Assembly (NCBI GenBank): GCA_018400715.1
Contig: JAGYME010000001.1
Span: 44,940-108,939, forward strand
DNA: 64,000 nucleotides
Source: Candidatus Bipolaricaulota bacterium
Lineage (GTDB): Bacteria > Bipolaricaulota > Bipolaricaulia > M55B111
Direction: 5' to 3'
The notes under the pieces were generated by a model, which was given only the letters and a program-made list of their open reading frames with translations, had not been told where the DNA came from and searched no databases. Positions 5,502 to 40,195 of the stretch are shown in pieces. The position numbers were made by a program, and so were the translations under genes. Position 1 is the stretch's first letter, and every line of letters starts with the position of its first letter.

Positions 5502-6332
5502 CTAGAGAACGCTGAAAACGTTGACGAGCGAAGTGCTTCCCAGGACCGACCAGAAGGTGGCGATTTGATGAAATCCATCCGATCCGGTCCACAGGGGAAA
5601 CAGGATCCCCACGCCCAACGCCACCAGCTGGACCAGCCGTGCTCTCTTCCGTGGCGAGCGTACCTTTTCGACCGGTTTAATTGGCCTTTCGCTATATATT
5701 GCCCAGAGGTAGGTTACCGAGATCAGCGACACCAGGCCGATCTTCACCGGGTAGTTGACGAACCCGGGCCACGGTAGACCATCAAAAATAAGCAGGTAGA
5801 CAGCCCAGGAGGCGGAGAGGATGCCCGCGAGGAGATGACGGACCTTAGAGCTGTCAATAACCGCGTCCCCGATGAAGACTACCGCGCCAGCACCGGCGAT
5901 AACCCAGGAGAGTCGATGGCCGAGCCAGAGCGTCAGGGCCGTGGCGAAAACGGTGTCCACTACCCCCAGGACGTGAACCGCCGTTCTGTTCATTACCCGA
6001 AATAGGATAACGGCCCAGAGGGTCAATAACAGGTGGGGGGTCCAGAGCACCGCCACAATTATTACCTGCCCTAGTGACGCCAGGACCGGTGTCAGGCGAT
6101 GGTTCGGATCGACCTCCCTTCCCAGGACGCCAGCAAGGAATATCGAAAGAGAGGTCCGGACCCCGAAGGCGAGCGAATGGAACAGTGAGCCGGTCGAAAC
6201 GAGAAAGGCGAGGGTAAAGCCAAAAAAAGAGGCGGCAGAAATCACCAATAAGAACGTGTTCCTCGAAGAGAAGGCTAATAGTCGTCTGCCCAGGATAGAT
6301 ACTCCCCGCGAGGGCCTCGTCGTGGTCAACAT
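5502..6332 (-). CDS. polytopic membrane protein, hypothetical (276 aa; no Cys)
   Basis: About 8 predicted TM helices; no family recognised. Confidence 0.5.
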   Translation of the reverse strand: MLTTTRPSRGVSILGRRLLAFSSRNTFLLVISAASFFGFTLAFLVSTGSLFHSLAFGVRTSLSIFLAGVLGREVDPNHRLTPVLASLGQVIIVAVLWTPHLLLTLWAVILFRVMNRTAVHVLGVVDTVFATALTLWLGHRLSWVIAGAGAVVFIGDAVIDSSKVRHLLAGILSASWAVYLLIFDGLPWPGFVNYPVKIGLVSLISVTYLWAIYSERPIKPVEKVRSPRKRARLVQLVALGVGILFPLWTGSDGFHQIATFWSVLGSTSLVNVFSVL

Positions 6333-7037
6333 CTAATACCTCATGCCTGTCTGAAATTGTTCGTGAATTAAGTCGAGTCTAATTGCTTTCTCAATTGAAT
6401 TTAACGGTTTTTCCCGAGGTTTTTCAAGTTGTGAAGTAAGGGGGTGCGGCTGCCGAAATTACCCTGAACGGGCCCGTCCACGGATGAGTAAGGTCCAGTG
6501 GTAGATTAGAATGACGTGACTATCTCCGTGATTATGTCGTCACAAAACTCGTGAAACAATTCGTTGAGGCGAAGGCTGGATGAGGGAGGGAGGGATTGCT
6601 TAATTCCAAAGATATCTTCTTTGGTGTCGATCGTAATATTATCCAGGTCAATGGTCCCCGACAATTCCTGTAGATCGGCGGGACGTTGTTTGCTCCATTG
6701 GGAAACAACCTTATGGGAGACGTCTTCCCCGATCCTTTCCTGCCTGCTTTCGTTTAAATTCTTGAACCTGCTTATATTCATCGGTTCCAGGCCCTACCCT
6801 GTTGACTGGATTAATTTAGGTAACATTCGACGATTAACTTTATAAACATTTAATTATCATGCAGAAAGCCCGAAAATGCAAGGTTTCAGGGTCTCGGCAA
6901 TGGACAAAGGTGTAGTCATTTACGGCTGAATGGGAAGAAACGAGGTGGAAAAGTTTGACTTCGGTATTATATATAGAGTATACTGACGAAAGTTAACACG
7001 CCCAGGGTACTGCCAGGCAGCCCACAAGGAGGTAGCA

Positions 7038-27133: not shown

Positions 27134-27544
27134 TCAATCGCAGATGTTTAACCTCTCGTCTTCGTCCACCGGTACCCCACAGGACTGGAGGAACTCCGGT
27201 TTGCGCTGGATTACTCTGCAGATCTCACATATCCTGCTGGGCAAGTCGTCAACCCGTCCTTCGACGAGGTCCCTGGCGAGCTTCTCTACCCTGCTGTATA
27301 CCTCCTCGTGTCTCGTGTAACTTCTTCCCCGTTTTTCCCTAACGTACTGGGAGACGCCGGCCTGACTTATGCCGAGTAGGTCGCCGACTTCCTGCTGGGT
27401 TATATCCATTCTTACCATCTCCCTGGCAAGACAGCCACGGATGCAGGGCACAATGTACCAAACGGCAACCTCGCAGGGTTGCTTGTGAACAAGTTTTTTT
27501 TCTTCTTCCTCCTGAGCCTTCTGTTCGTCGTTTGTTCCTGCCAT
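27134..27544 (-). CDS. XRE-type HTH transcriptional regulator with N- and C-terminal Cys pairs (putative metal/redox-binding)
   Basis: QQEVGDLLGISQAGVSQYVREKRG helix-turn-helix; CEVAVWYIVPCIRGC and CEICRVIQRKPEFLQSC motifs. Confidence 0.6.
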   Translation of the reverse strand: MAGTNDEQKAQEEEEKKLVHKQPCEVAVWYIVPCIRGCLAREMVRMDITQQEVGDLLGISQAGVSQYVREKRGRSYTRHEEVYSRVEKLARDLVEGRVDDLPSRICEICRVIQRKPEFLQSCGVPVDEDERLNICD

Positions 27545-27667: not shown

Positions 27668-27695
27668 TTGACATTATTATTACAATTGTTATAAT
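27668..27695 (+). promoter_or_regulatory. sigma70-type promoter TTGACA-16-TATAAT with embedded palindrome ACAATTGT, upstream of 27823
   Basis: Consensus hexamers read directly. Followed by perfect palindromes ATTGCGATCGCAAT (27697-27710) and AATTTGCAAATT (27708-27719). Confidence 0.55.
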
Positions 27696-27822
27696 GATTG
27701 CGATCGCAATTTGCAAATTAACCCCGGGCCATTGTCTCGGGTGTTTCAGCCGAGCGCAGAGGGAAAACCGAAAACACTCAATCTGAGGAGATTGAACCAC
27801 TCAGGGTAGCTCGAATGAAAGG

Positions 27823-28407
27823 ATGAAAACTATACTAGATTTACAGACAACCGAAGAGGCAGCGAATAAGAGCGGGGGTGCCGAGGATGAGAAGATAGTC
27901 CGGTCGTTGACCCCCGTTATCATCGTCGGCCGCGAGGACCTCGCTGAAGAGTACGGTGAAGAGATAGAACTACCGGAAGTTAGACTAGAAGACCAAACCG
28001 GGGGAAATGGGAGGAGTAGAAACTCCCAGAAACCAGTGGAAGTTGACGTCGCCCGGGCGTGGAAGGCCGCAAACGAATGGATACAGGAACTCGTAGTGTA
28101 TCGGGACGAACGTGTACGGAAGAAAATCCACGAAAACCGGGTTAAGGACGAGACAAACCACTACCGAGGCGTAAAGACCGAAGAAAAGTTCAGATGGCAG
28201 TACGATGAAGAGACCATGAAGGACCTCAGGCCGATTTACCGACCGGTAAAGGAAAAGTTGATTGAGGATCTGGGCAATCCTAAGCGGTCAGCGTTTGCTT
28301 CCCTTTTCCCGCACGAGTTCGACGATTTGGGGCTCAGTGGCCGGGCCAGAAGAGCTGTCCGTGACCTGAAGGCAGTCTTTGGCGAGGATATTTTGTTGAA
28401 ATCTTAA
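27823..28407 (+). CDS. hypothetical protein (194 aa, charged, no signal peptide)
   Basis: ORF with AAGGA then ATG; no family recognised. Confidence 0.5.
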   Translation: MKTILDLQTTEEAANKSGGAEDEKIVRSLTPVIIVGREDLAEEYGEEIELPEVRLEDQTGGNGRSRNSQKPVEVDVARAWKAANEWIQELVVYRDERVRKKIHENRVKDETNHYRGVKTEEKFRWQYDEETMKDLRPIYRPVKEKLIEDLGNPKRSAFASLFPHEFDDLGLSGRARRAVRDLKAVFGEDILLKS

Positions 28408-28501
28408 TCTTTTTCAACGAGGGGTGATCCCATAGACCAACTCCCGACCCGGAGCATTATTTTGATTCATTCTTATACCAGAAACTTGGAGGTATTTTAA
28501 C

Positions 28502-29074
28502 ATGACAGAGAAGAAAGACGTAGAAACAGAAGGCGGCGTACTCGAAAACCTAAATCGCCGGGACTTTATTAAGGGTGCTGCCGCAGCAGTCGGCGGTCTG
28601 GCGTTTAGCTCGCTTGCGATTACGAACTTTGAGGCCGCTGCGGCGAACGGACAGGACTACGTTATAGTCACCGAGGTCGTTAAGGGAAGTGCGGGCGCCG
28701 TTGGCGCTCCCTGTGAGCTAACGAGCGTCTTCAAGAAGGGCGAGCAGGTCGTGTGGCACGCTGTCCTATTTAGCGGCAAGACGGGCGAAAAGCTAAACGA
28801 CCACGGGGAGATGCAAAAGCGCGGCGTAAAGGTCCAGGTAGAGCTGGAAAACGGAAAGACGATTGATATGCACCACGGGGAGCACCCGCCAAGCGGAAGC
28901 CCCAAGATCTACTACTGGGCTGGTGCCTGGAAGATCTCACCTGGTGCACCGACAGGCAAGATGACTTATAAGATTACGGCCAAGGACAAGGAAGGGCGGA
29001 CGGGGACCCTTAACATGTTTGGGAAAAAGGACGTAGACACCTTCCCAAGGGCGCTGACGATAGAGAATCGATAA
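28502..29074 (+). CDS. Tat-secreted hypothetical protein (190 aa)
   Basis: Twin-arginine signal NRRDFIKGAAAAVGGLAFSSLA. Confidence 0.6.
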   Translation: MTEKKDVETEGGVLENLNRRDFIKGAAAAVGGLAFSSLAITNFEAAAANGQDYVIVTEVVKGSAGAVGAPCELTSVFKKGEQVVWHAVLFSGKTGEKLNDHGEMQKRGVKVQVELENGKTIDMHHGEHPPSGSPKIYYWAGAWKISPGAPTGKMTYKITAKDKEGRTGTLNMFGKKDVDTFPRALTIENR

Positions 29075-29098
29075 AACGGCCAACAGGAACTCCTCGGT

Positions 29099-29140
29099 AA
29101 AGGGGGCCAGGTCTGGTCCTGGCCCCCTTTACCCTTTTAC
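29099..29140 (+). terminator. rho-independent terminator (13-bp stem AAAGGGGGCCAGG / CCTGGCCCCCTTT plus ACCCTTTTAC)
   Basis: Perfect inverted repeat with a 6-nt loop and a T-rich tail, directly after the stop of 28502..29074. Confidence 0.7.
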
Positions 29141-29154
29141 AAGGACGATATAAT

Positions 29155-30621
29155 ATGGACGAGAAGGACACAAACAGTGGAATAATTCGGGACTTGAACG
29201 AGATGCCCACTCCGGAGACCGGGTTTCAGGGACAGCTCAAGTGCAGTACGGACGAAGCGGAAGTAGGGGATACCGTTGAAATCACCGGTCTGGATCTGCC
29301 CGAGGAGGGTGAATTTCAGCTCCTGTGGAGGTCTTACAGCGTTGACTGGGATATGGAGAGACGGTCGGACGGAATTATCTGGAGGCGGTTCTTCGGGTTT
29401 GCGCACAGAGAAGTCCAGAGGTCCCTGGCTGAGGTGAGGACGGACCCGAACGGACGCTTTTCCCGGGAGTTTGCGGTACCGGAGGACTTCGGCGGACTTC
29501 ACGACATATATCTCATTGACGAAACGCGGCGGATCAACAAGGTCGGCCTCCGGATAGCCCCCAGTTTCGACGTCACTCCGGATTCAGTACCTTTGGGCCA
29601 ACCGATTACAATTACCGCCAAGGGGCTGCCACTTCCAGTTGCCGACTCCGTGGACAACCCCCCATATCACGTCTACTACGACAACAAGTACACGGGACTT
29701 ATAAGTCCCGTAACGCCGGACGGGACGACAAGTTTTACAATCCCTGCGACGGGGGAGAAGGGAACGCACGTGATCGACGTGGAGAGGTGCCCGTTTGGCA
29801 ACGCCCATTCCTACCGGCAGACCCATATAGGGTTGATATCCCTACCCGGGACCCCGGACCTGTCCTGGACATTTGAGTTGACGGGTGGCGAGCCGAACCT
29901 CCCCCCGCCGATCGAAGAGCAGACTCCCGCTCCGGTGATGAGACAGGGAGAAGAGGCGCCCGCAGAGAAGAATCCATCTCTGTGGACTGAGGAACGGGCG
30001 ATACCGGTAACCGGTACGGTGAACCTTAGCGGGGTTGGGTTCCCGCAGGACGCGGACGTAAAGATCGCCTGGTCACAGCTCGAGGGTAGTAACCTGCGCG
30101 AGGAGAGGTTTTCCGAGCGAGAAGCGGTCGTAGTCTGGGCGGAGGCCGACGGTGAGGGAAGATTTTCAGCGCAGATGGCCCCCATGCCGGCGACCGTCCA
30201 GGGTGGCCCCCATCCGATAAGCGCTTACGTTGAAGGAGAGAAGGTAGCAACTGCTTCAGTTATCGTCCTCCCCCAATTCAAGGAACTTGACCCCGATAGT
30301 GGACCCCCCGGGACGCAGATTACGGTAAACGGGGAGGGCGTGGGCTGGAACGAGATGTGGAATCAGGTGACGATCCTCTACGACAACTCCTACATAGGTT
30401 ACGTCTGTGGTGGGGATATCCCGGGGGTGGTAGAGGGAAAGCTCAGAGCGACGGGCCAGCCCGGCTGGCACATCATCGACCTCTACCCGACCATCCAGAA
30501 ACAGAGAAATTTCGCCGACGAGGCGTTTGAGATCCCGTTTATCTATCGGTTGCCGTTTTTAAACTGGGACTCCCACCCACAGGGTTATCATTTTAGGTAC
30601 GCGTTTCGGGTTGAAGAGTGA
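29155..30621 (+). CDS. hypothetical protein with Ig-like/IPT-like repeats (488 aa)
   Basis: Repeated ...GxPITITAKGLP... and GPPGTQITVNGEG segments; no signal peptide. Confidence 0.5.
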   Translation: MDEKDTNSGIIRDLNEMPTPETGFQGQLKCSTDEAEVGDTVEITGLDLPEEGEFQLLWRSYSVDWDMERRSDGIIWRRFFGFAHREVQRSLAEVRTDPNGRFSREFAVPEDFGGLHDIYLIDETRRINKVGLRIAPSFDVTPDSVPLGQPITITAKGLPLPVADSVDNPPYHVYYDNKYTGLISPVTPDGTTSFTIPATGEKGTHVIDVERCPFGNAHSYRQTHIGLISLPGTPDLSWTFELTGGEPNLPPPIEEQTPAPVMRQGEEAPAEKNPSLWTEERAIPVTGTVNLSGVGFPQDADVKIAWSQLEGSNLREERFSEREAVVVWAEADGEGRFSAQMAPMPATVQGGPHPISAYVEGEKVATASVIVLPQFKELDPDSGPPGTQITVNGEGVGWNEMWNQVTILYDNSYIGYVCGGDIPGVVEGKLRATGQPGWHIIDLYPTIQKQRNFADEAFEIPFIYRLPFLNWDSHPQGYHFRYAFRVEE

Positions 30622-31973
30622 GGTGGCTGACTTTGTGTGAAGACGACAAGAACACTGGAAAGAAATCCCTGACCAGACGGAGTTTGCTGAGGATAGCCGG
30701 CGGTAGCTTGCTCTCGCTATCCCTCCCATTTTACGCGGGTGAATTCGTCTCGGGTGCTGAGAACACGTTGAAGGTGGGGGGAATATTTTCCCTGACCGGG
30801 CCCAACTCTCCGGTGGGCAGGACTATACGGGATGGTGCGAAGTTGGCCATCCGGAGAGTAAATTCTTCCGGTGGAATATCCGGAACGATACCGCTGAAAC
30901 TGGACGTCAGGGATGGGGAGACGAGCCAAACCGGCGCCTCGGACGCGGCGCGGAAGCTAGCGAACCGGAAGGAGGTCAGCTTTGTCTTGGGCCCTCTAAT
31001 CGGCACTCATGGGGCAGCCAGCCAGCCGATCCTGGCCGCCGCCGGGATACCGCAAATCTTCTTCGGGACCGCGGTGGGGTTTACCGAGCGCCACGGGGAA
31101 TATCCGCTCTCGGTCCGGTTTGGAACACAGACTGCACTCCAGACCGCTCCCGTGTTGAAGTACGCCCTCAACGAACGAGGGGATGGAGATTTATTTTTGC
31201 TGGCCCCGAACAACCAGCAGGGCCGGGACTTCGACAGAGTTATCTCCGCCCAGACAGGGAGGTTGCAGGGTGCTGATCTTGTCGGTTCCGAGTACTACCC
31301 ACCGTTCAACCGAGACTTTTCTTCACTATTTGCGAAGGCAGTCAACTCCGGCGCTGATGGACTGATAGTCGGTACGGGCATTCCTGCGGACCTGGTCTCT
31401 CTCGCCAGGGAGTACCGTCGTCAGGGGGTAAGCTTCGATGACTTCGGTTATTACACTGGCCAGACGCCCAATGGATCGGTCGGTTTCTTCGAACAGGTCG
31501 TGGAGCGGGGACTTGGAGACGGGATAATTTTCTCCTGGCACTACGAGAGCGCGAATTACGCACGGGAGTTCGACCGCGATAATCCGCCCGAAGGAGTGGA
31601 GCTCATGGAGCGGGCGTTCCTGGAGGAATTTGGTTCTTACCCCGACTCCCCTCCTGCTGCCAGCTGGGGCTGGGGGAGTATAATGATTCTCAAGCAGGCG
31701 ATCGAAAGACTCGTCGAGGCCCGAGGAGAGGATTCGGTAGTTTCCTCCTTGAAAACTGGGAAACTCCCCCAAGATACTATCAACTACATCCTGCCCGAGC
31801 CCGGTACTGAAGTGACGGGACCGGTGTTTTACACGCCATTTGGCAACGCAGGATTTCTTAGCTGCGGTCAGTTTGACGTAAGGTTGGGGGTTGCCACGTT
31901 TAAAGACAGAGAGATATTGCTGCTCAAGGATCGGGGCTACGGTGAAGATATCATGGTGCCACTGTGTCCGTAG
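30618..31973 (+). CDS. ABC transporter substrate-binding protein, branched-chain amino acid (LivJ/LivK, cluster 4) family. Start may be TTG at 30633.
   Basis: Tat-like leader TRRSLLRIAGGSLLSLSLPFYAG; periplasmic-binding fold I motifs; GAGGTGG RBS before 30633. Confidence 0.75.
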   Translation: MRWLTLCEDDKNTGKKSLTRRSLLRIAGGSLLSLSLPFYAGEFVSGAENTLKVGGIFSLTGPNSPVGRTIRDGAKLAIRRVNSSGGISGTIPLKLDVRDGETSQTGASDAARKLANRKEVSFVLGPLIGTHGAASQPILAAAGIPQIFFGTAVGFTERHGEYPLSVRFGTQTALQTAPVLKYALNERGDGDLFLLAPNNQQGRDFDRVISAQTGRLQGADLVGSEYYPPFNRDFSSLFAKAVNSGADGLIVGTGIPADLVSLAREYRRQGVSFDDFGYYTGQTPNGSVGFFEQVVERGLGDGIIFSWHYESANYAREFDRDNPPEGVELMERAFLEEFGSYPDSPPAASWGWGSIMILKQAIERLVEARGEDSVVSSLKTGKLPQDTINYILPEPGTEVTGPVFYTPFGNAGFLSCGQFDVRLGVATFKDREILLLKDRGYGEDIMVPLCP

Positions 31974-31989
31974 ACGGAGAGGCCGACCG

Positions 31990-33903
31990 ATGAACCCAGC
32001 CCTTTTGCTGCCGAAGTTTTTGTTCGACGGTCTGTTTCTGGGTAGCTACTACGGCCTTATCGCCCTGGGTATTGCGATAATCTTTGGAATACTTAAAGTG
32101 GGAGACGTCGCTCAAGGTGGTCTGTTCGCTCTCGGTGCATATCTCACCTATACGACCGTGGAAACTCTAGGTCTGAACTACTTCTGGGCGCCGGCGGTAG
32201 TCCTGCCGGCCACGGCCGGATTAAGCGTCCTGTATGGAACGACAATTTATCGGAAGCTACGCAAAAACGGTATCGCGGCGACCTTCCTCGGGGCAGTTAG
32301 CCTCCTCTTAATTATTCAGAGCCTCCTTGCGGTCGGCTACGGCGAGAGGGTCAAGACGATTGAGTCCCCTCTCGTTCCCGCCAGCGTAAACGTCGGGGGC
32401 GCGTCGATCTACTCCCACAAAATTCTTGTAATCCTTGTTACCGCGGCGGTCGCCAGTCTCGTCTGGTACGGCGTGAGGAAGACAACCTGGGGCAGGTCAC
32501 TCCGTGCCCTGTCTCAAAACTACGAGATTGCCGTAATGTCGGGAATAAATCCAACGGTTACGGTCGGTGTCGCCTTTGCTCTTGCCGGCGGACTAGCGGG
32601 GTTTTCCGGGTTTTTGACCGCGCCCGTCTACTCGATTACACCGTTTACGGGAAGGTTGACGGTCCTAAAGGCATTCGTGGTCTCCCGAATCGGAGGCGGT
32701 TCGGTCCCCGCGGTACTCGGGCTGGCGCTGGCTCTGGGCCTGTCGGAATCGCTGACCTCCGCGTACTTTCTTGGTGAGTTGAGTAACCTCATTCCGTTTC
32801 TCCTCTTGATCGGGGTCGCGCTGTTCAGGCCGGGCGTCCTTGGTCCCGAGGAAAGAACGTGGATCGAAAGTTCGAAGGTTGAAGGCGAGAGTTCCGCCTT
32901 TCCTACCTTCGACGGATACCTGACCCTCTTGTTACCTGCGGTATTCCTGATACCGGTACTGGTTGACCTGCCCGCCTACTTTACCGACCTGGGGATCACC
33001 GTCGCGGCGTTATCGAGCGGGGTAATGAGCGTGGACCTTTTGTACGGCTACGTCGGGTTGCCCTCGCTCGTCCAGGGGGCCTTCTTCGGGGTCGGGGCCT
33101 ATGCGGCGACGACGGTAATCGTGGAAACGGGCGGTGGCCTGGCCTTAGCTCTCCTTGTCGCCGTTGTGTCCGCCTCCGTCCTCGGAGCCGTGGTGGGGGT
33201 TATGGGCCTGCGGGCGGGACGGCACTGGACCTCGTTTACGTTCATCATGACGATCGTCTTCACGGTCGTTGCCACGAATTTAGTCTCACTTACCGGTGGT
33301 CCCGGCGGGATCCCGGGGATAACGGAGGTTTTTATTCGGCTCCCTGTTCTGGGACGTGTCGACTTAAATCCGTTTACGAGCAGGTGGAGCTTCTATTTAA
33401 TCGTCGCCTCCGTCTTCGCGATTCTCTTCTGGCTGAAGGGCCTGATCGTGAGGTCACGGTTCGGCCACTCGCTCGAGGCGATACGGGAGGACGAGAGGCT
33501 GGCGGAATCGATAGGAATACCGGTCGGAAGGTACAAGCTAGTTGCCTTCACGATAAGCGCTGCCGTTGCCGGGATCGGGGGAGCGCTTTACGCCGGTTAC
33601 ACGACCTATATTAACCCGGAAATGTTTAACTTCGTTACCTCGTTCAGGTTCCTGATGATGGATAGGATAGGCGGGGTGGGGACCCCGCTCGGCCCCGTGG
33701 TGGGCCCTTTATTAATTACCCTGCTCGAGGACCTGACCGAACCCCTCAACTCCTATTTGGGTCAGATTATCTTTAGCGGAGCGCTGATCGTCACCCTCGC
33801 CTGGCTCCCGGGCGGGATTGTTGGTCTCGCCGGGCGGGTCCTGAGTAAGTTTTTCCCCGGCGGTAACGCGGGCGGTACGGCAGAAGAACGAGGGGGTGAG
33901 TAA
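31990..33903 (+). CDS. ABC transporter permease, fused LivH-LivM type (two BPD domains)
   Basis: MNPALLLPKFLFDGLFLGSYYGLIALGIAIIFG is a LivH-like start and a second LivM-like half follows. The longer ORF start at 31891 overlapping the SBP is rejected. Confidence 0.8.
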   Translation: MNPALLLPKFLFDGLFLGSYYGLIALGIAIIFGILKVGDVAQGGLFALGAYLTYTTVETLGLNYFWAPAVVLPATAGLSVLYGTTIYRKLRKNGIAATFLGAVSLLLIIQSLLAVGYGERVKTIESPLVPASVNVGGASIYSHKILVILVTAAVASLVWYGVRKTTWGRSLRALSQNYEIAVMSGINPTVTVGVAFALAGGLAGFSGFLTAPVYSITPFTGRLTVLKAFVVSRIGGGSVPAVLGLALALGLSESLTSAYFLGELSNLIPFLLLIGVALFRPGVLGPEERTWIESSKVEGESSAFPTFDGYLTLLLPAVFLIPVLVDLPAYFTDLGITVAALSSGVMSVDLLYGYVGLPSLVQGAFFGVGAYAATTVIVETGGGLALALLVAVVSASVLGAVVGVMGLRAGRHWTSFTFIMTIVFTVVATNLVSLTGGPGGIPGITEVFIRLPVLGRVDLNPFTSRWSFYLIVASVFAILFWLKGLIVRSRFGHSLEAIREDERLAESIGIPVGRYKLVAFTISAAVAGIGGALYAGYTTYINPEMFNFVTSFRFLMMDRIGGVGTPLGPVVGPLLITLLEDLTEPLNSYLGQIIFSGALIVTLAWLPGGIVGLAGRVLSKFFPGGNAGGTAEERGGE

Positions 33904-33924
33904 TCGTCTCGAGGGACAAAGCCT

Positions 33925-34596
33925 ATGTCTGAAATTCTGCGGGTGGAAGGGCTGAGCAAAGAGTTTGGAGGTCTAACGGCGGTGGACGGAGTTAACCTGA
34001 CCGTCAACGGTGGAAAGATCGTTGGTCTGGTGGGTCCAAATGGAGCGGGAAAGACGACATTGTTCAACCTGATCAGCGGGTTTCTCGCCCCTTCCTCCGG
34101 GGACATGTACTTTCGCGGGAAGAGAATTAACCGCTGGAGCGTCCGCAGGCGTGTTTTGGCGGGGATCACGAGGACGTTTCAGAAGAGCAGAGTATTTCCC
34201 GGTTTTTCCGTTAGGGAAAACGTACTCACCGCGGCCCACGGTTCCGGCGGCGGCGGCGAGTTCTACGATGAAAAGGACGACTTCCTTGACTGGCTGCTGG
34301 GAACGACGAAGCTTGCCGGTTACGGGGACCGGCACGCCCGGGACCTTTCCTTCAGTTACAGGCGGAGGCTGGAACTGACTATCGCGGTCGCCACCCGCCC
34401 TGAACTGCTCCTGCTCGACGAGCCCTTCGGCGGGACGGGGGTGGGAGACTTAAGCGATTTGTCCCGGCTCCTCCAGCTCCTCCGGGACGAGGGGATGACG
34501 TTACTTCTTGTTGAGCACAACATCTCCGCCGTGGCGGGGATCGCAGACAGGTTGATTTACATGGAGAAGGGGAGGTTGAGGATACCGAATGGATAG
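33925..34596 (+). CDS. ABC transporter ATP-binding protein (LivG-like) with degenerate signature motif
   Basis: Walker A GPNGAGKTT, Walker B LLLLDEP, H-loop VEHN. The signature region reads LSFSYRRRLE instead of LxYGQQRRLE. Confidence 0.8.
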   Translation: MSEILRVEGLSKEFGGLTAVDGVNLTVNGGKIVGLVGPNGAGKTTLFNLISGFLAPSSGDMYFRGKRINRWSVRRRVLAGITRTFQKSRVFPGFSVRENVLTAAHGSGGGGEFYDEKDDFLDWLLGTTKLAGYGDRHARDLSFSYRRRLELTIAVATRPELLLLDEPFGGTGVGDLSDLSRLLQLLRDEGMTLLLVEHNISAVAGIADRLIYMEKGRLRIPNG

Positions 34597-35254
34597 GGCT
34601 CTGGGCGTAACTGACGTGACTCTGGAATCGCCGGCCGGGAGGATACTTGACGGCGTGAACCTGGCGGTATCCTCTGGAGAGATCGTGGCACTGGTGGGGG
34701 AGAACGGCTCCGGGAAGACGATGACGCTGAGGTCGGTAGCCGGACTGGAGCCTCGAGCGTCTGGAAGGATCCGATTTATGAGCGAAGATATCACTGACCT
34801 TAGCCCTGAACGTAGGGTGAGGCGGGGAATAAGTTACTGTCCGTCGGAGGGGAACGTATTCCCGCGGATGAGCGTGAGGGAGAACCTGGCCACGGGAGCA
34901 GCCCTTCTCCCAGGAGACCTGGATGAGGGTATACGAGACGTTTATGAGATGTTTCCCTCTCTCGAGCGGTTAAGCACTCGTCGAGCTAGCTCCCTGAGCG
35001 GTGGCGAGCAGCAGGTCCTCGCGCTGGCCAGGGCGATAACGGTCAGCCCGGAGTTGCTCCTGCTTGACGAGTTCTCCCTCGGACTCTCACAGGTGGTCTT
35101 AAGTAGGATGGCGGGGGTGGTAAGGGAAATTAACGCATCAGGCGTTACGGTCCTCTTCGTGGAACAGAACCTACGCCTGGCTGCGGATTTGTCGGACCGA
35201 GACTACTACATGTACGAAGGTAGAGTTGTGGATGAAGACGTTCTGAGACCTTGA
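34589..35254 (+). CDS. ABC transporter ATP-binding protein (LivF-like)
   Basis: GENGSGKTM Walker A, LSGGEQQ signature, LLLLDEFS Walker B. Confidence 0.8.
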
Positions 35255-35270
35255 CGGTAAAAGGAGAAAT

Positions 35271-37001
35271 ATGGAGATATTCGAGCACGACTTGCTAATT
35301 GTTGGTGGCGGTGCGGCCGGGTTGAGGGCCGCGATTGCGGCTCGCGAGCACGTTGACGACGTCGGGATAATCTCGAAGGTCAACGTCTTACGGTCGCACT
35401 CGGTGACGGCCCAGGGAGGGATCTCTGCGCCACTGGGCAACACCGGCGAGGGCGTTGACGACAGTTGGAGGGTCCACTTTGAGGACACGGTCCGTGGTGG
35501 AGATGGACTCGTGGACCACGATGCCTGTGAGATTCTGACGAAGGGCGCGAGCGGAACGGTTTTAGAGCTGGATAACATGGGCGTGCCGTTCAATCGGACG
35601 GAGGACGGGAGGCTTGACCAGCGTCCCTTTGGTGGTCACAGCTTGCCGAGATCCCTGTATGCCGCGGACCGGACCGGCCACGGGATTACCTACGCTCTGT
35701 ACGGGGAAAACGTCCGGCTTGACAACGCCGTTTACAACGAGTTCTTCCTGCTTGACCTCGTGGCGGACGGGGCGAGAGTCAATGGGTTGACGGCTTATAA
35801 CATGAAGTCCGGGGAAGTGGTCGGTTTCAGGGGGAAGTCGGTCGTCCTTGCCACAGGTGGGTGCACTCAGGCGTTCGCGCATACCACAAGCGGGGCGGCT
35901 AGTACGGGAGACGGCCTAGGTATCGCGATGAGAAACGGGATACCGCTTGAGGATATGGAGTTCATCCAGTTTCATCCCACCGGACTTCCCGGAAGCGGGA
36001 TACTGATCTCGGAGGCCGCACGGGGTGAGGGCGGCTATCTGATTAACGACGACGGGGAAAGGTTCATGAAACGCTACGACCCCGAGAAGATGGAACTCTC
36101 ATCGCGGGACCGGGTCGTGCGGGGAATGCAGCGGGAAATCGAACGTGGTAAAGGGATCGACGGGGAGGACTACCTCCACCTTGACCTGACTCACCTATCC
36201 CGGCGTACTCTGGAAGAGAAGCTACCGACGATCAGCCAGATAGCTGAGGACTTTGCCAAGGTCGACCCTTCGGAGAGGCCGATTCCCGTGCGGCCGACCG
36301 CCCACTACTGCATGGGAGGAATACCCGTAACACTAAACGGCCGCGTCAAGGGGTCAAGTTGGGGAAACACCTGGGATAACCTGTTTGCGGCCGGAGAAGC
36401 TGCTTGTTTGAGCGTCCACGGGGCCAACCGGCTGGGGACTAACTCCCTGCTGGAGGCTGTGGTTTTCGGAAAGAGGATCGGGGCGGTGGCTGGAAGGACC
36501 GCGGAGGAGGGCAGTTTTGGTAAGTTGCCACGAGAGACGCTGAACCAGCAAGAAAAATATCTCACGGAGCTGAGGGAAAAAGATGGCACGGTCCGATTGG
36601 GAGAGATAAAGTCACGCCTGCGGGAGTTAACCTGGAATAAGTGCGGGGTGTTCAGAAATCAATCGGATCTGGAAGAAGCGAATGATGAGATTTATGAACT
36701 CAGGCGTACCTTCTCAGAAGAGCTTACCCTGGACGACCGGGGTTGTAAGTTCAACACCGAACTGCGCTCTGCTCTGGAGCTCCGTAATCTCCTGGAATTC
36801 GTCCCAGCAGTTCTTCTGGGCGCTTACAAGAGGACTGAAAGCCGGGGAGCCCATTACAGGGAGGACTATCCCGAGAAGGACGATGGAAACTGGGCGGTCC
36901 ATTCTTATGTTGTCAGGACAAACGAGGGACGCTACGGTGTGGACTATAGACCGGTCCGAAATGATACGGGCCGCGGAACAACAGACGAGGGAGGTGAGTG
37001 A
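35271..37001 (+). CDS. sdhA: succinate dehydrogenase / fumarate reductase flavoprotein subunit
   Basis: [17 protein letters not shown] fold, [10 protein letters not shown] covalent-FAD His region, HPTG and RLGTNSL catalytic motifs. AAGGAG RBS; 17 bp after the end of livF. Confidence 0.85.
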
Positions 37002-37002
37002 A

Positions 37003-37725
37003 GTGAAGGTTACGTTTAGGATAAGCCGCTACGACCCGGAAACGAACGAGGGCAGTTATGTTGAAGATTTTTTACTGGAGGTAGAGGAGTATGAACTCAC
37101 TGAGGTCACCGTACTTGACGCCTTAGTGGAGATAAAGGAGGACCAGGACGGAAGCCTTACGTTCAGGCACGGGTGCGGGCACGGTTCGTGTGGGTCATGC
37201 GCGGTCTTGATAAACGAAAAGAACCGCCTGGCCTGTGAGACGCATCTCGACGATCTGGAGTTGGATGAGAAAACCGTAGTGGAGGTGTCATCCCTGCCCG
37301 GGTTCCCGACGATAAAGGACCTGGTGGTGGACATGGATAACTTCTTTCGCAACGACAGGTTGGCCCGACCGTTCATCTCCGGCGAGGATGAGAGATCGGG
37401 ACCGACCGAGACTGAGCAGACTCCGGGCGAGCTAAGGAGGATATTGGAGGCGACCGAGTGCATTAACTGCGGAGCCTGCACCGCCTCTTGTCCGACTTAC
37501 TGGGAAAACGAGGGCTACCTGGGGCCGGCTGCGCTCGTCAGGGCCTATCGGTGGATGGAGGATAGCAGAAACTCCGAGATCGAGGAGCGGCTGGCCGCCC
37601 TCGATGACGAGAAGGACGGGGTCTGGGGGTGCAACAAGTTTTTCAACTGTCTCGAGGCCTGCCCCAAGGAGATAGATACGGTGGGAATTATCGAGGCGTT
37701 GAAGCGCTCGGTCATCACCTCTTAG
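37003..37725 (+). CDS. sdhB: succinate dehydrogenase / fumarate reductase iron-sulfur subunit
   Basis: CGHGSCGSCAV ([2Fe-2S]), CINCGACTASCP ([4Fe-4S]), CNKFFNCLEACP ([3Fe-4S]). GTG start after GGAGGTGA; the ORF-track N-terminal extension is rejected. Confidence 0.8.
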   Translation: MKVTFRISRYDPETNEGSYVEDFLLEVEEYELTEVTVLDALVEIKEDQDGSLTFRHGCGHGSCGSCAVLINEKNRLACETHLDDLELDEKTVVEVSSLPGFPTIKDLVVDMDNFFRNDRLARPFISGEDERSGPTETEQTPGELRRILEATECINCGACTASCPTYWENEGYLGPAALVRAYRWMEDSRNSEIEERLAALDDEKDGVWGCNKFFNCLEACPKEIDTVGIIEALKRSVITS

Positions 37726-37744
37726 GTTGGTAATAGCATGCTGA

Positions 37745-37764
37745 TATATTACAATTGTTATAAT
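37745..37764 (+). promoter_or_regulatory. extended -10 promoter TATATTACAATTGT-TATAAT (TGn-TATAAT), sharing an 18-bp motif with 27677-27695
   Basis: TATTACAATTGTTATAAT is identical at both loci; it lies 39 bp upstream of the 37803 start. Confidence 0.45.
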
Positions 37765-37802
37765 ATTGGTAAAGAATATGAGATGACTCGAGGAGGTTAA
37801 AA

Positions 37803-38300
37803 ATGGAAACGCGGACTGTGAACGCTGAAAGTTATTCCCTGGGGATGAGGTTTACCATGCTCCTGGCCAGGATCGGTACGGGGGCGAGTTTGATCGGAGT
37901 TGGTCTCAGGTTGCTCGTTGGGGGCGGTTGGGACGCCTGGAATGTGGTGGGCGTCTTCCTGCCGACTACGTACCCCCGCGGACCAGTCGGGAAGATACTT
38001 CTTAACTTCTGGGGCAACCCGGCCGTAATCCAGCTGTTGCTATGGGCTCTAGTCCTCGTTGGGCTGGCACTGGTCTTCGGGCTCGCGCTCAGACTGGCAA
38101 GCTACGGAGGGATGCTGATAATGCTGTTGATGTATCTGGCGGTCGTCCCCCCGGGATCGGCAATTATAAGCCAGCAGATCATTTACCTGTTTTTATTGAT
38201 GGTACTTGCGGTAGGGGAAGCTGGGACGGTATTAGGATTCGACTCGTTTCTCCTTCCACTGGAGGAAAAGTATCCATGGGTAAGGTACTTCCTCCGTTAA
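37803..38300 (+). CDS. DoxX-like small integral membrane protein (4 TM)
   Basis: 165 aa, four hydrophobic helices with a Gly-rich pattern resembling the DoxX/DoxD family; GAGGAGGT RBS. Confidence 0.45.
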   Translation: METRTVNAESYSLGMRFTMLLARIGTGASLIGVGLRLLVGGGWDAWNVVGVFLPTTYPRGPVGKILLNFWGNPAVIQLLLWALVLVGLALVFGLALRLASYGGMLIMLLMYLAVVPPGSAIISQQIIYLFLLMVLAVGEAGTVLGFDSFLLPLEEKYPWVRYFLR

Positions 38301-38364
38301 CTTGATATGGCCTTTATTATGCCAACGAAGTCAGAAAATCTGAATTTCTTTAGGAGCGTTGAAC

Positions 38365-39171
38365 ATGGAGAATAAAGGAAAGAAGACAGCCCTGATCACC
38401 GGGGCGTCACGGGGAATTGGTTACGAGATAGCGAAGCTCGCTGCTCAGAACGGCTACAATTTGGCCATCGTGAGTCGCTCTCTGGAAAACCTCGTCTCCG
38501 TTAAAAAGAAAATCGAGAGGGAGTACGGCGTCAACGTTGAGCCAATCGCGGGTGACTTAAGTTACACCGAGACGGCAGAGAGGATATTTGACCGCTTGAG
38601 CGGTGCGGATATGTGGGTTGATCTACTCGTAAACAACGCGGGTAGGGGTCAAATGGGGGAGTTCATCGAGACGGACTGGGAAGTAGACCGGGAGATGATG
38701 CGGTTAAACATGGACGCGGTGGTTTACCTGACCGACCTGTTCCTGCCACAGATGATAGAGAGGGGACAGGGAAAGATCTTAAACGTTTCATCGCTGGCCG
38801 CATTTGCTCCGGGTCCCCTCATGGCCCTCTATTACGCGACAAAGGCCTTCGTTCAGAATTTTTCCGAAGGACTGGCCGAGGAGGTCGCAGATAAGGGGGC
38901 GACCGTGACCGCCCTTTCTCCTGGACCGGTGGACACGGGGTTCGAGATAAAAGGAGTAAAGCCATCTGAGAACGGAAACAAATCTGTCAGGGTGTCCCCT
39001 GAGTTGGCCGCAAAAGTCGGATACAACGGCGTCATGAGCGGCAAGCGAGTCGTCGTCCCCGGCGGGGCGGTCTCAGTTGCCCCACAGCTGGCCCGCCTCT
39101 TACCGCGGAGGACAGTAAGCAGCTTCATCAGTTGGCTAAACAACCGCCTATTGTACAGGGACGGTGCTTGA
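38365..39171 (+). CDS. SDR-family oxidoreductase; last four codons and stop lie inside MITE copy 2
   Basis: TGASRGIG and NNAG motifs, S...YxxxK. AGGAG 8 nt before the ATG at 38365. The stop TGA at 39169-39171 is inside the TIR. Confidence 0.8.
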   Translation: MENKGKKTALITGASRGIGYEIAKLAAQNGYNLAIVSRSLENLVSVKKKIEREYGVNVEPIAGDLSYTETAERIFDRLSGADMWVDLLVNNAGRGQMGEFIETDWEVDREMMRLNMDAVVYLTDLFLPQMIERGQGKILNVSSLAAFAPGPLMALYYATKAFVQNFSEGLAEEVADKGATVTALSPGPVDTGFEIKGVKPSENGNKSVRVSPELAAKVGYNGVMSGKRVVVPGGAVSVAPQLARLLPRRTVSSFISWLNNRLLYRDGA

Positions 39172-39322: not shown

Positions 39323-40195
39323 ATGCGGACGGCAAGAAGAACATATAAGGGTGCCTTCCATCACGTAATGAACCGTGGTCACGAAGGCAAGATGATATTT
39401 TCTTCCAGAGGCCTCAAACGAAAGTTCCTAAAGTTCCTGGTCGATCAGGCCGACAAGACGAAGATTAGGGTATTTGCTTATTGCCTTATGAACAATCATT
39501 ATCATTTGGTCCTACAGAATAGTTCCGGGAAACTTTCTAACTTTATGCGCAATCTAAACGGATCCTTTGGGACGACGTATAGGAATAGGGAGGGAGGCAA
39601 AGGTTATGTCTTTCAGAACCGCTTCAAATCCACGCTTATCACGACAGATCATTATCTCTCGGCTGTAATAGCATATACGTTGTTGAATCCTCTTCGAGCT
39701 GGTCTGGTAGAAGATCCGTATAATTACGAATGGTCGAGTATCAATGAATACTTCTCTAACGACAAGAAGACCGTCACCGATAGGGAATTTGTTGAAAATC
39801 TCTTCATGTCCCAGGACGGGCTGAGAAGACATCTATCACATTGGGTTGGGAGAGAACTACCCGTGAAAGACACCGATCAAGGCGAAGTGATCGGCGAAGA
39901 GAAGGGGCCGATCAGAAGGACGGGGATCATTGACAGGGCAAAAGAGGATGTGCAAAGATTTCCCAAGGTACAGGTTGTTATCGCCAGATTCGAAATGGAG
40001 AAAGGTGTCGAGTTGAGCGATATAGATCTCTCCAGCCACAATGGAAAGCGATTGAGGGCGGAGCTATTGGTTCGCCTCAAGGACGATGCCGGACTAACTT
40101 ATAGAGAGATCAGTGAAATGTCGATATTTGAAACTCTGAGTTATTCTTCTCTTGGGAAAATATATCAGCGAACGAAGAGAAGACTGGCAACGTAG
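39323..40195 (+). CDS. IS200/IS605-family HuH Y1 transposase (TnpA), REP-associated tyrosine transposase (RAYT)-like, 290 aa with C-terminal HTH-like extension
   Basis: YHVMNRGHEG...AYCLMNNHYHLVLQ (HuH motif)...YVFQNRFKS...YTLLNPLRAGLV...YEWSS (catalytic Tyr region). Flanked by MITE copies 2 and 3. Confidence 0.8.
   Translation: MRTARRTYKGAFHHVMNRGHEGKMIFSSRGLKRKFLKFLVDQADKTKIRVFAYCLMNNHYHLVLQNSSGKLSNFMRNLNGSFGTTYRNREGGKGYVFQNRFKSTLITTDHYLSAVIAYTLLNPLRAGLVEDPYNYEWSSINEYFSNDKKTVTDREFVENLFMSQDGLRRHLSHWVGRELPVKDTDQGEVIGEEKGPIRRTGIIDRAKEDVQRFPKVQVVIARFEMEKGVELSDIDLSSHNGKRLRAELLVRLKDDAGLTYREISEMSIFETLSYSSLGKIYQRTKRRLAT

Follow-up and report, generated by a model that had tools for sequence, protein, structure and literature searches.

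The anchor of Escherichia coli FrdABCD, a complex II, binds quinone without haem and consists of two three-helix subunits, FrdC and FrdD. Complex II enzymes have been sorted by their membrane parts into six classes, and some homologues of complex II are soluble; the word DoxX is absent from the review that sets out these classes (PMC10238741). A DoxX-family membrane subunit is known from the thiosulfate:quinone oxidoreductase (TQO, DoxDA), in which it is joined by a small subunit and quinone takes up the electrons (PMC6335251). In the 64-kb stretch of a Candidatus Bipolaricaulota genome analysed here (GCA_018400715.1, contig JAGYME010000001.1; the whole stretch is called the window), genes for SdhA and SdhB of classical type are followed by a gene for a DoxX-type membrane protein, and no recognised complex II anchor is encoded with them. 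These three genes close a predicted ten-gene unit that also encodes a Liv-type ATP-binding cassette (ABC) importer and three proteins which we call unk194, unk190 and TIG488. The analysis covers the window and the 10-kb flanks of related loci. Literature searches returned nothing relevant that links DoxX to the membrane anchors of succinate dehydrogenase, or Bipolaricaulota to complex II or menaquinone, and the genes of this operon go unmentioned in the Great Salt Lake paper.

The flavoprotein gene (35271..37001, + strand) encodes an SdhA/FrdA protein of the covalent flavin adenine dinucleotide (FAD) type, with FAD_binding_2 and Succ_DH_flav_C domains and a TIGR01812 score of 689 bits against a cut-off of 567. 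Its scores with solved structures are 494 bits for M. smegmatis Sdh2 (6LUM_A), 457-459 bits for the mitochondrial and E. coli succinate:quinone oxidoreductases (SQR), 385 bits for E. coli quinol:fumarate reductase (QFR) and about 217 bits for the L-aspartate oxidase NadB. The alignment with 6LUM_A shows the motifs RSHS, which holds the covalent-FAD His, FHPTG, SRD, HYCMGG (HYxMGG) and GANRLG; the roles of the residues concerned (the HPT His, the SRD Arg as proton shuttle, and the substrate His and Arg) are presumably those of E. coli SdhA, from which we assigned them. As SdhA carries no signal peptide, the enzyme is expected to face the cytoplasm.

The iron-sulfur subunit SdhB (37003..37725, + strand; 240 aa) scores 262 bits with PRK05950, above the cut-off of 228, and was aligned to 6LUM_B (168 bits) and 1NEK_B. 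Its 2Fe-2S, 4Fe-4S and 3Fe-4S motifs are all present, the third as CxxxxxCxxxCP. The earlier note on this DNA had described a complete SdhA with the covalent-FAD His in its context and a complete SdhB with three Fe-S motifs, and the alignments to 6LUM and the E. coli enzyme bear this out; as far as sequence can define it, SdhAB is a genuine complex II catalytic pair of the classical type. The likeness to complex II of known structure, for which 6LUM is the nearest and the mitochondrial and E. coli SQR come next, extends over the full length of both subunits, whereas the locus differs from these enzymes in having no recognised anchor and in the Q-site of SdhB. Beside the 3Fe-4S cluster, the clade to which the window belongs has the invariant sequences CPTYW[D/E] and CNKxFNC, compared with CPSFWWN and CHSIMNC in E. 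coli. At the Q-site positions, W-D/E thus stands for W-W and N-K for H-S, with E. coli Trp164 replaced by an acidic residue and Ser208 by a Lys.

The earlier note had proposed that the Liv-type importer feeds an unidentified substrate to an SdhAB-like enzyme that reduces or oxidises it; on this reading, the short-chain dehydrogenase/reductase (SDR) encoded downstream would act in the same pathway. The gene arrangement invites such a reading, with all genes on one strand, tight spacing and only 16 nt between livF and sdhA. The enzyme speaks against it: in the comparison with SQR, QFR, TfrA and NadB, SdhA clearly scores best as SQR/QFR, and the fumarate/succinate residues are kept, so it does not appear to be an unusual-substrate enzyme. 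The catalytic residues and the SQR/QFR scores point to fumarate/succinate as the substrate of SdhA, almost certainly so on this sequence evidence, and not to an unidentified compound. Other identities of the pair were tried and rejected, namely TfrAB (TfrA 437 bits against a cut-off of 718; TfrB 129 against 385, covering only positions 4-213 of the 488 in the model), NadB (TIGR00551 378 bits against a cut-off of 453, with an SdhB gene directly downstream) and the periplasmic MfrABE (no signal on SdhA; MFR_Fp 449 bits against a cut-off of 1100).

The gap between livF and sdhA holds AAAGGAG, sdhB opens with a GTG start codon one base past the sdhA stop codon, and the gene for the DoxX-superfamily membrane protein (37803..38300, + strand; 165 aa, four helices) comes next. 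The gene inventory first reported, LivJ / fused LivHM / LivG / LivF / SdhA / SdhB / membrane protein / SDR, is confirmed by Pfam and NCBIfam, and these genes do stand head to tail on the + strand. The unit is wider than first described, with a divergent helix-turn-helix (HTH) regulator gene, a consensus promoter and ten genes from 27823 to 38300, whereas the SDR gene, which adjoins the cluster in no related locus, falls outside it. One conserved promoter, short gaps and no terminator-like site within the intergenic gaps of the operon make the proposed co-operonic layout of the importer and sdh genes plausible for the window, but it does not extend to one sub-lineage, in which livF and sdhA are split by a gene on the opposite strand.

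Scanning species-representative genomes with the membrane protein gave 15 loci in 13 assemblies, all of them Bipolaricaulota or so labelled. When these loci were labelled with the window proteins, the order unk194-unk190-TIG488-LivJ-LivHM-LivG-LivF-SdhA-SdhB-DoxX was found wherever the contigs are long enough. The earlier note had called for a check on the co-occurrence of this gene order; of the 12 Bipolaricaulota species genomes that could be assessed, 11 proved to keep the ten-gene order, as did two metagenome contigs. MAGs (metagenome-assembled genomes) of this clade include GCA_018334915.1, GCA_018335255.1 and GCA_036625395.1. SdhB lies immediately 5' of DoxX in 11 of the 12 species whose upstream side is visible, and the DoxX-like protein, encoded 77-91 nt downstream, is the sole membrane protein beside sdhB in every clade locus. 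In the split sub-lineage (L004 and L005), the gene between livF and sdhA encodes a 320-aa protein with no Pfam match (6030-6992 on the - strand of L004). The ABC and sdh genes can therefore not be one transcript there, and sdhA-sdhB-DoxX must be transcribed separately; DoxX remains with sdhAB in both of these loci, followed by tatA (10579-10812 in L004). Two contigs of one MAG (assembly JAIPHN01, loci L010 and L012) each carry an SdhB-DoxX cluster end, which indicates either two copies or strain heterogeneity.

A direct Pfam and NCBIfam scan of the 165-aa membrane protein gave nothing significant (DoxX at E = 4.6), and its 23 close homologues, all of about 165 aa, come from Bipolaricaulota MAGs. 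A profile search of 1.8 billion representative proteins returned 325 relatives, of which 43 were aligned with the query and four close homologues. Of these 48 aligned proteins, 40 match Pfam DoxX (best 2.5e-12), 18 match MauE and 17 match DoxD. An AlphaFold2 (AF2) model built from the 23 close homologues was too poor, with a predicted local distance difference test (pLDDT) value of 60.6; the 48-sequence alignment was used instead and gave a model with a pLDDT of 88.4. The top fold match of this model is NACHO/TMEM35A, and its four-helix membrane fold is shared with a solved DoxX-family protein. Judged by its profile relatives and its predicted fold, the protein is a divergent member of the DoxX superfamily, and the label 'DoxX-like' given to it before is right. 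No SdhC/D or FrdC/D is among the matches of the fold search. Since the 165 residues include no His and no Cys, the protein cannot bind haem in the usual way, and it could only be a haem-free anchor. FrdABCD offers a precedent for such an anchor, with FrdC and FrdD where a single four-helix DoxX-fold protein would stand here. The idea of a disguised SdhC/D or FrdC/D was rejected, given that no such fold was matched and no His is available for haem.

No Sdh_cyt protein, CCG-type SdhE/F or class F anchor is encoded in the operon or by the other membrane open reading frames of the 64-kb window, which confirms for both the statement that the region has no cytochrome-b SdhC/D anchor. Nor does any recognised complex II anchor lie within 10 kb in about 15 related loci. 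A conventional anchor (SdhC/D or SdhE/F) might nonetheless be encoded elsewhere, making this an ordinary class A-E complex II with split genes. The window represents 64 kb of the genome, and a type E cluster does occur in the phylum: on another Bipolaricaulia contig (L029, 4374-8531), SdhA is followed by a 346-aa SdhB, a CCG protein and a 143-aa protein in a type E-like SdhABEF arrangement, so that the phylum holds at least two complex II arrangements. Its SdhA, 54% identical to that of the window, counts as one of the closest extra-clade relatives, whereas the window SdhB has 240 aa and is of the 3Fe-4S type, and no CCG protein accompanies it. In a further locus (L030), the gene after an SdhA identical to that of L029 encodes an SdhB whose third motif is CxxCxxC, unlike the window SdhB. 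A Methanofastidiosia contig (L031) has SdhC-SdhD-SdhA-SdhB, and anchors thus adjoin sdhAB in both extra-clade relatives examined (L029 and L031). With no candidate in the window or in the related loci, we regard a distant conventional anchor as improbable.

The operon opens with unk194 (27823..28407, + strand), a charged cytoplasmic protein with no Pfam or NCBIfam match, with homologues encoded in the clade loci and, as the 3'-terminal gene, in one operon outside the clade (L035, described below). It is followed by unk190 (28502..29074, + strand), an exported protein whose twin-arginine translocation (Tat) signal, NRRDFIK, is recognised by Pfam (TAT_signal) and TIGR01409, and by TIG488 (29155..30621, + strand), a multi-Ig (IPT/TIG-like) protein with a weak TIG match only. 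The mature part of unk190 has about 150 residues, with C71, H128 and W139 nearly or fully invariant in the family, and its fold is probably a beta-sandwich. Apart from the Tat signal it has no Pfam match, and hence no match to the DoxA family. Neither unk190 nor TIG488 has a PDB relative by sequence or profile, or an informative Pfam or NCBIfam family, and the 235 clusters of TIG488 homologues that we found are all without a name ('hypothetical'). By eye, the TIG488 consensus appears to be built on a pair of homologous repeats (GP.GT..T...KG.GW....N....YDN...G ... ATG.PG.H.[IL][DE]) that have one invariant His apiece; the family has a single invariant Cys, in GY.CG. Conserved Cys and His residues of TIG488 are C418, H205 and H439.

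A metagenome scan with the TIG488 alignment gave at least 542 matching stretches; 80 loci were retained and labelled with hidden Markov models. TIG488 is adjoined by unk190 in 73 of the 80, and in the remaining seven the contig breaks off. Ten of the 80 loci have a neighbouring DoxX-like gene, which follows TIG488 or lies between it and unk190, with gaps down to 4 nt. In 8 to 11 of the 80, unk190-TIG488 comes after genes for a DsrO-like Fe-S protein, a DsrP-like membrane protein and an anchored Ig-like protein, nearly always on one strand. The DsrO- and DsrP-like proteins score below the NCBIfam cut-offs (181 vs 200 and 100 vs 350), which makes them family relatives rather than Dsr proteins. 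These modules of the NrfC/NrfD type take the place of DoxX beside unk190-TIG488 elsewhere and are absent from the window. A quinone-type partner, DoxX-like or DsrO/DsrP-like, is found in about a quarter of the 80 loci, or in 9 of the 23 that have enough flank. This recurrence beside quinone-interacting membrane modules suggests a redox role, and unk190-TIG488 is, on this genomic evidence, a probable extracytoplasmic redox module that had gone unrecognised.

Export signals differ between lineages. Twin-arginine signals mark unk190 and the importer's binding protein both in the clade and in L035 (the RR of the binding protein is seen in L032, L033 and L035), where TIG488 has none; in other lineages unk190 and TIG488 both carry Sec or lipoprotein signals. 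With unk190 as the only signal-bearing member of the pair in the clade, TIG488 would be co-exported with it by the Tat pathway, hence as a physical complex. The module is spread over soil, sediment and other metagenomes and is always annotated as hypothetical. Two-component regulator genes lie near it in roughly 8-10 loci, mostly upstream. In a single case, a plasmid of Deinococcus sp. D7000 (CP058536.1, 7224-10359; L113), unk190-TIG488, again hypothetical, directly follows azlC-azlD, a gene pair for transport of branched-chain amino acids; this puts a second, unrelated type of amino-acid transporter beside unk190-TIG488.

In the window, the importer begins with a binding protein of the HAAT family (LivJ/UrtA-like; 30618..31973, + strand; Peripla_BP_6 7.5e-43) that has the twin-arginine signal TRRSLL. 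The fused LivH-LivM type permease (31990..33903, + strand) has its real start at 31990, downstream of the LivJ stop, and contains two BPD_transp_2 stretches, with a UrtB/LivH-like N half and a UrtC/LivM-like C half. Two ABC_tran ATPases follow, one LivG-like (33925..34596, + strand; best NCBIfam match LivG at 165 bits, under the cut-off) and one LivF/UrtE-like (34589..35254, + strand; UrtE 187 bits and LivF 160 bits, both under their cut-offs). One Peripla_BP_6 binding protein, two BPD_transp_2 domains and two ATPases make this a HAAT importer with the same components as LivJHMGF and UrtABCDE, from which it differs in its fused permeases and in the Tat signal of its binding protein. No Liv or Urt equivalog is matched (UrtA 46 bits vs 493, LivJ-type 32 vs 477, UrtE 187 vs 286), and with all NCBIfam scores far below the equivalog cut-offs a substrate cannot be assigned to the importer. 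In the PDB, the best relatives of the binding protein, which are HAAT proteins that bind amino acids or amides, reach only 1e-14, which leaves room for the importer-substrate proposal introduced above.

Related loci argue against that proposal in the same direction as the enzyme does. A marine-sediment contig (L035) carries DoxX, unk190, TIG488, LivJ, LivHM, LivG, LivF and unk194 as a tight operon without SdhAB, from which it follows that the conserved partners of the importer are unk194, unk190, TIG488 and DoxX. The opposite-strand gene parts livF from sdhA in L004 and L005, and the SDR gene is missing from all related loci. With the fumarate/succinate residues of SdhA and an importer that occurs without SdhAB, the idea that importer and SdhAB are coupled in the use of an unidentified substrate is not supported, and we consider it very improbable.

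The arrangement can be accounted for as follows. An older eight-gene system would have consisted of unk194, the exported unk190 and TIG488, LivJ/LivHM/LivG/LivF and a DoxX-type protein; in this clade, sdhA-sdhB would have been added downstream of livF, ahead of the DoxX gene, with no anchor of their own. Since the eight genes occur together without SdhAB elsewhere, insertion of sdhAB into a pre-existing system is the parsimonious history. The Tat-exported complex of unk190 and TIG488 may trade electrons with quinone in the membrane by way of DoxX, which is haem-free, much as is assumed for DoxD in TQO; a quinone-linked role of DoxX is suggested by this parallel and by the DsrO/DsrP-like partners that unk190-TIG488 has in other loci. 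SdhAB, whose 3Fe-4S cluster would normally feed a quinone site, may work on the same quinone, most simply at the same DoxX subunit, and in an anaerobe with a low-potential quinone the likely direction would be fumarate reduction. With one quinone-type membrane protein beside two quinone-reactive elements in one operon, a common quinone is the simplest reading. The comparison with TQO extends to gene spacing, as the very short gaps of unk190-DoxX resemble those of doxD-doxA, but a DoxA subunit was not found here, and TQO has no counterpart of TIG488, the importer or SdhAB. We therefore put forward only tentatively, at somewhat less than an even chance, that a short quinone-linked chain runs from the exported module to SdhAB through DoxX, with the quinone and possibly the DoxX subunit common to both. 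SdhAB may also be physically anchored on DoxX. Three observations favour such contact: DoxX is the one membrane protein retained next to sdhB, it remains with sdhAB in the split clusters, and the SdhB surface close to the 3Fe-4S cluster is invariant in the clade.

Several observations weigh against this explanation. Association of SdhAB with these genes is confined to the one Bipolaricaulota clade (two of the 80 metagenome loci, both from clade members), and all SdhAB-DoxX adjacencies thus count as a single evolutionary event. In a related Bipolaricaulia genome (GCA_042218715.1; L003/L016, JBDGQU010000056, 9268-10507), an intact DoxX homologue comes directly after unk190, across a 142-nt gap, and TIG488, the importer and SdhAB are all lacking from the surrounding 10 kb, so that unk190-DoxX persists alone; the L035 operon likewise does without SdhAB. 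Outside the clade, the three closest DoxX relatives with a readable context (L022, L023 and L024) each directly follow a TIG488 homologue: in L022 the homologue is full-length with 34% identity, and in L023 the DoxX-like gene comes after the C-terminus of another one. A Limnochordaceae genome has the order unk190-like, TIG488-like, DoxX-like, and in L039, L042-L044 and L054 a DoxX-like gene follows unk190 with a gap down to 4 nt. An exact-sequence look-up among contigs gave no match for the membrane protein of the window, and one further relative, P0148, lies on a contig of only 1.2 kb and has no neighbourhood. The older unk190/TIG488 partnership suffices to explain why the DoxX gene is there, with no need to invoke SdhAB. 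As judged by eye on the alignments, the most conserved part of the DoxX-like protein is a predicted periplasmic loop, its C-terminal, cytoplasmic tail motif is common to relatives unlinked to SdhAB, and no clade-specific cytoplasmic motif is seen; in unk190 and TIG488, no redox cofactor motif is evident.

These points are shared by a rival account, in which SdhAB is a co-regulated passenger, soluble or loosely membrane-bound and served by another redox partner, while DoxX serves unk190/TIG488 only and the position of sdhAB marks an insertion site. It draws on the DoxX partnerships without SdhAB in many lineages, on the retention of unk190-DoxX in L003/L016, and on the lack of any visible SdhAB-specific cytoplasmic feature in the DoxX protein. 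The relatives of SdhA at 46-49% identity include proteins named NADH-dependent fumarate reductase subunit A by the Joint Genome Institute (JGI), and soluble complex II homologues would provide a model (PMC10238741). SdhB, by contrast, is of the classical 3Fe-4S type with a clade-invariant cluster-proximal surface, no alternative partner subunit (CCG/HdrB-like or NADH-binding) is encoded in the operon, and SdhAB-DoxX adjacency holds in every clade locus with SdhAB, split clusters included. We take the passenger account to be a genuine possibility, if on the unlikely side. Much the same doubt applies to the most far-reaching form of the quinone-linked chain, a seventh kind of complex II in which SdhAB would sit on a single haem-free DoxX-fold subunit that is itself common with the Tat-exported unk190-TIG488, giving a three-part chain with its own importer in one operon.

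Upstream of unk194 lies a sigma-70 promoter on the + strand that matches the consensus at 12 of 12 positions, with TTGACA at 27668-27673, a 16-nt spacer, a TG, and TATAAT at 27690-27695. Just 3' of the -10 box, a perfect 14-bp palindrome, ATTGCGATCGCAAT (27697-27710), adjoins the divergent regulator gene and is, from its sequence and position, likely an operator. The candidate regulator (27134..27544, - strand) is an XRE-like HTH protein with a weak Pfam HTH_3 match of 1.5e-4, below the cut-off. In L032 and L033, two JGI metagenome contigs and the only members of the clade for which an upstream flank is available, an HTH homologue of 59-61% identity is likewise encoded divergently at this place. 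Both keep TTGACA/TTGAAA-N17-TATAAT upstream of unk194 with an imperfect related palindrome overlapping the -10 box, and their promoter and operator are laid out as in the window. Neither the window nor the operon leader yielded a riboswitch or any other Rfam element.

Both flanks of the unit are variable. The metallophosphatase gene upstream has no counterpart in related loci, and the same is true downstream for the SDR oxidoreductase (38359..39171, + strand; adh_short 2.8e-47) and the IS200-like Y1 transposase homologue (39323..40195, + strand; Y1_Tnp 5.8e-7). Related loci have ArsP, TatA or other genes 3' of DoxX instead of an SDR. The SDR and IS200-like genes were rejected as members of the unit and mark a variable and possibly recently rearranged flank.

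The classes of complex II rest on membrane anchors, and a long-kept SdhAB that has no known anchor and is always followed by a DoxX-fold protein is a testable candidate for another class; alternatively, it would be a naturally anchor-free classical SdhAB. The locus also exposes unk190-TIG488 as a widespread hypothetical pair, and gives the poorly understood DoxX proteins a defined partner to study.

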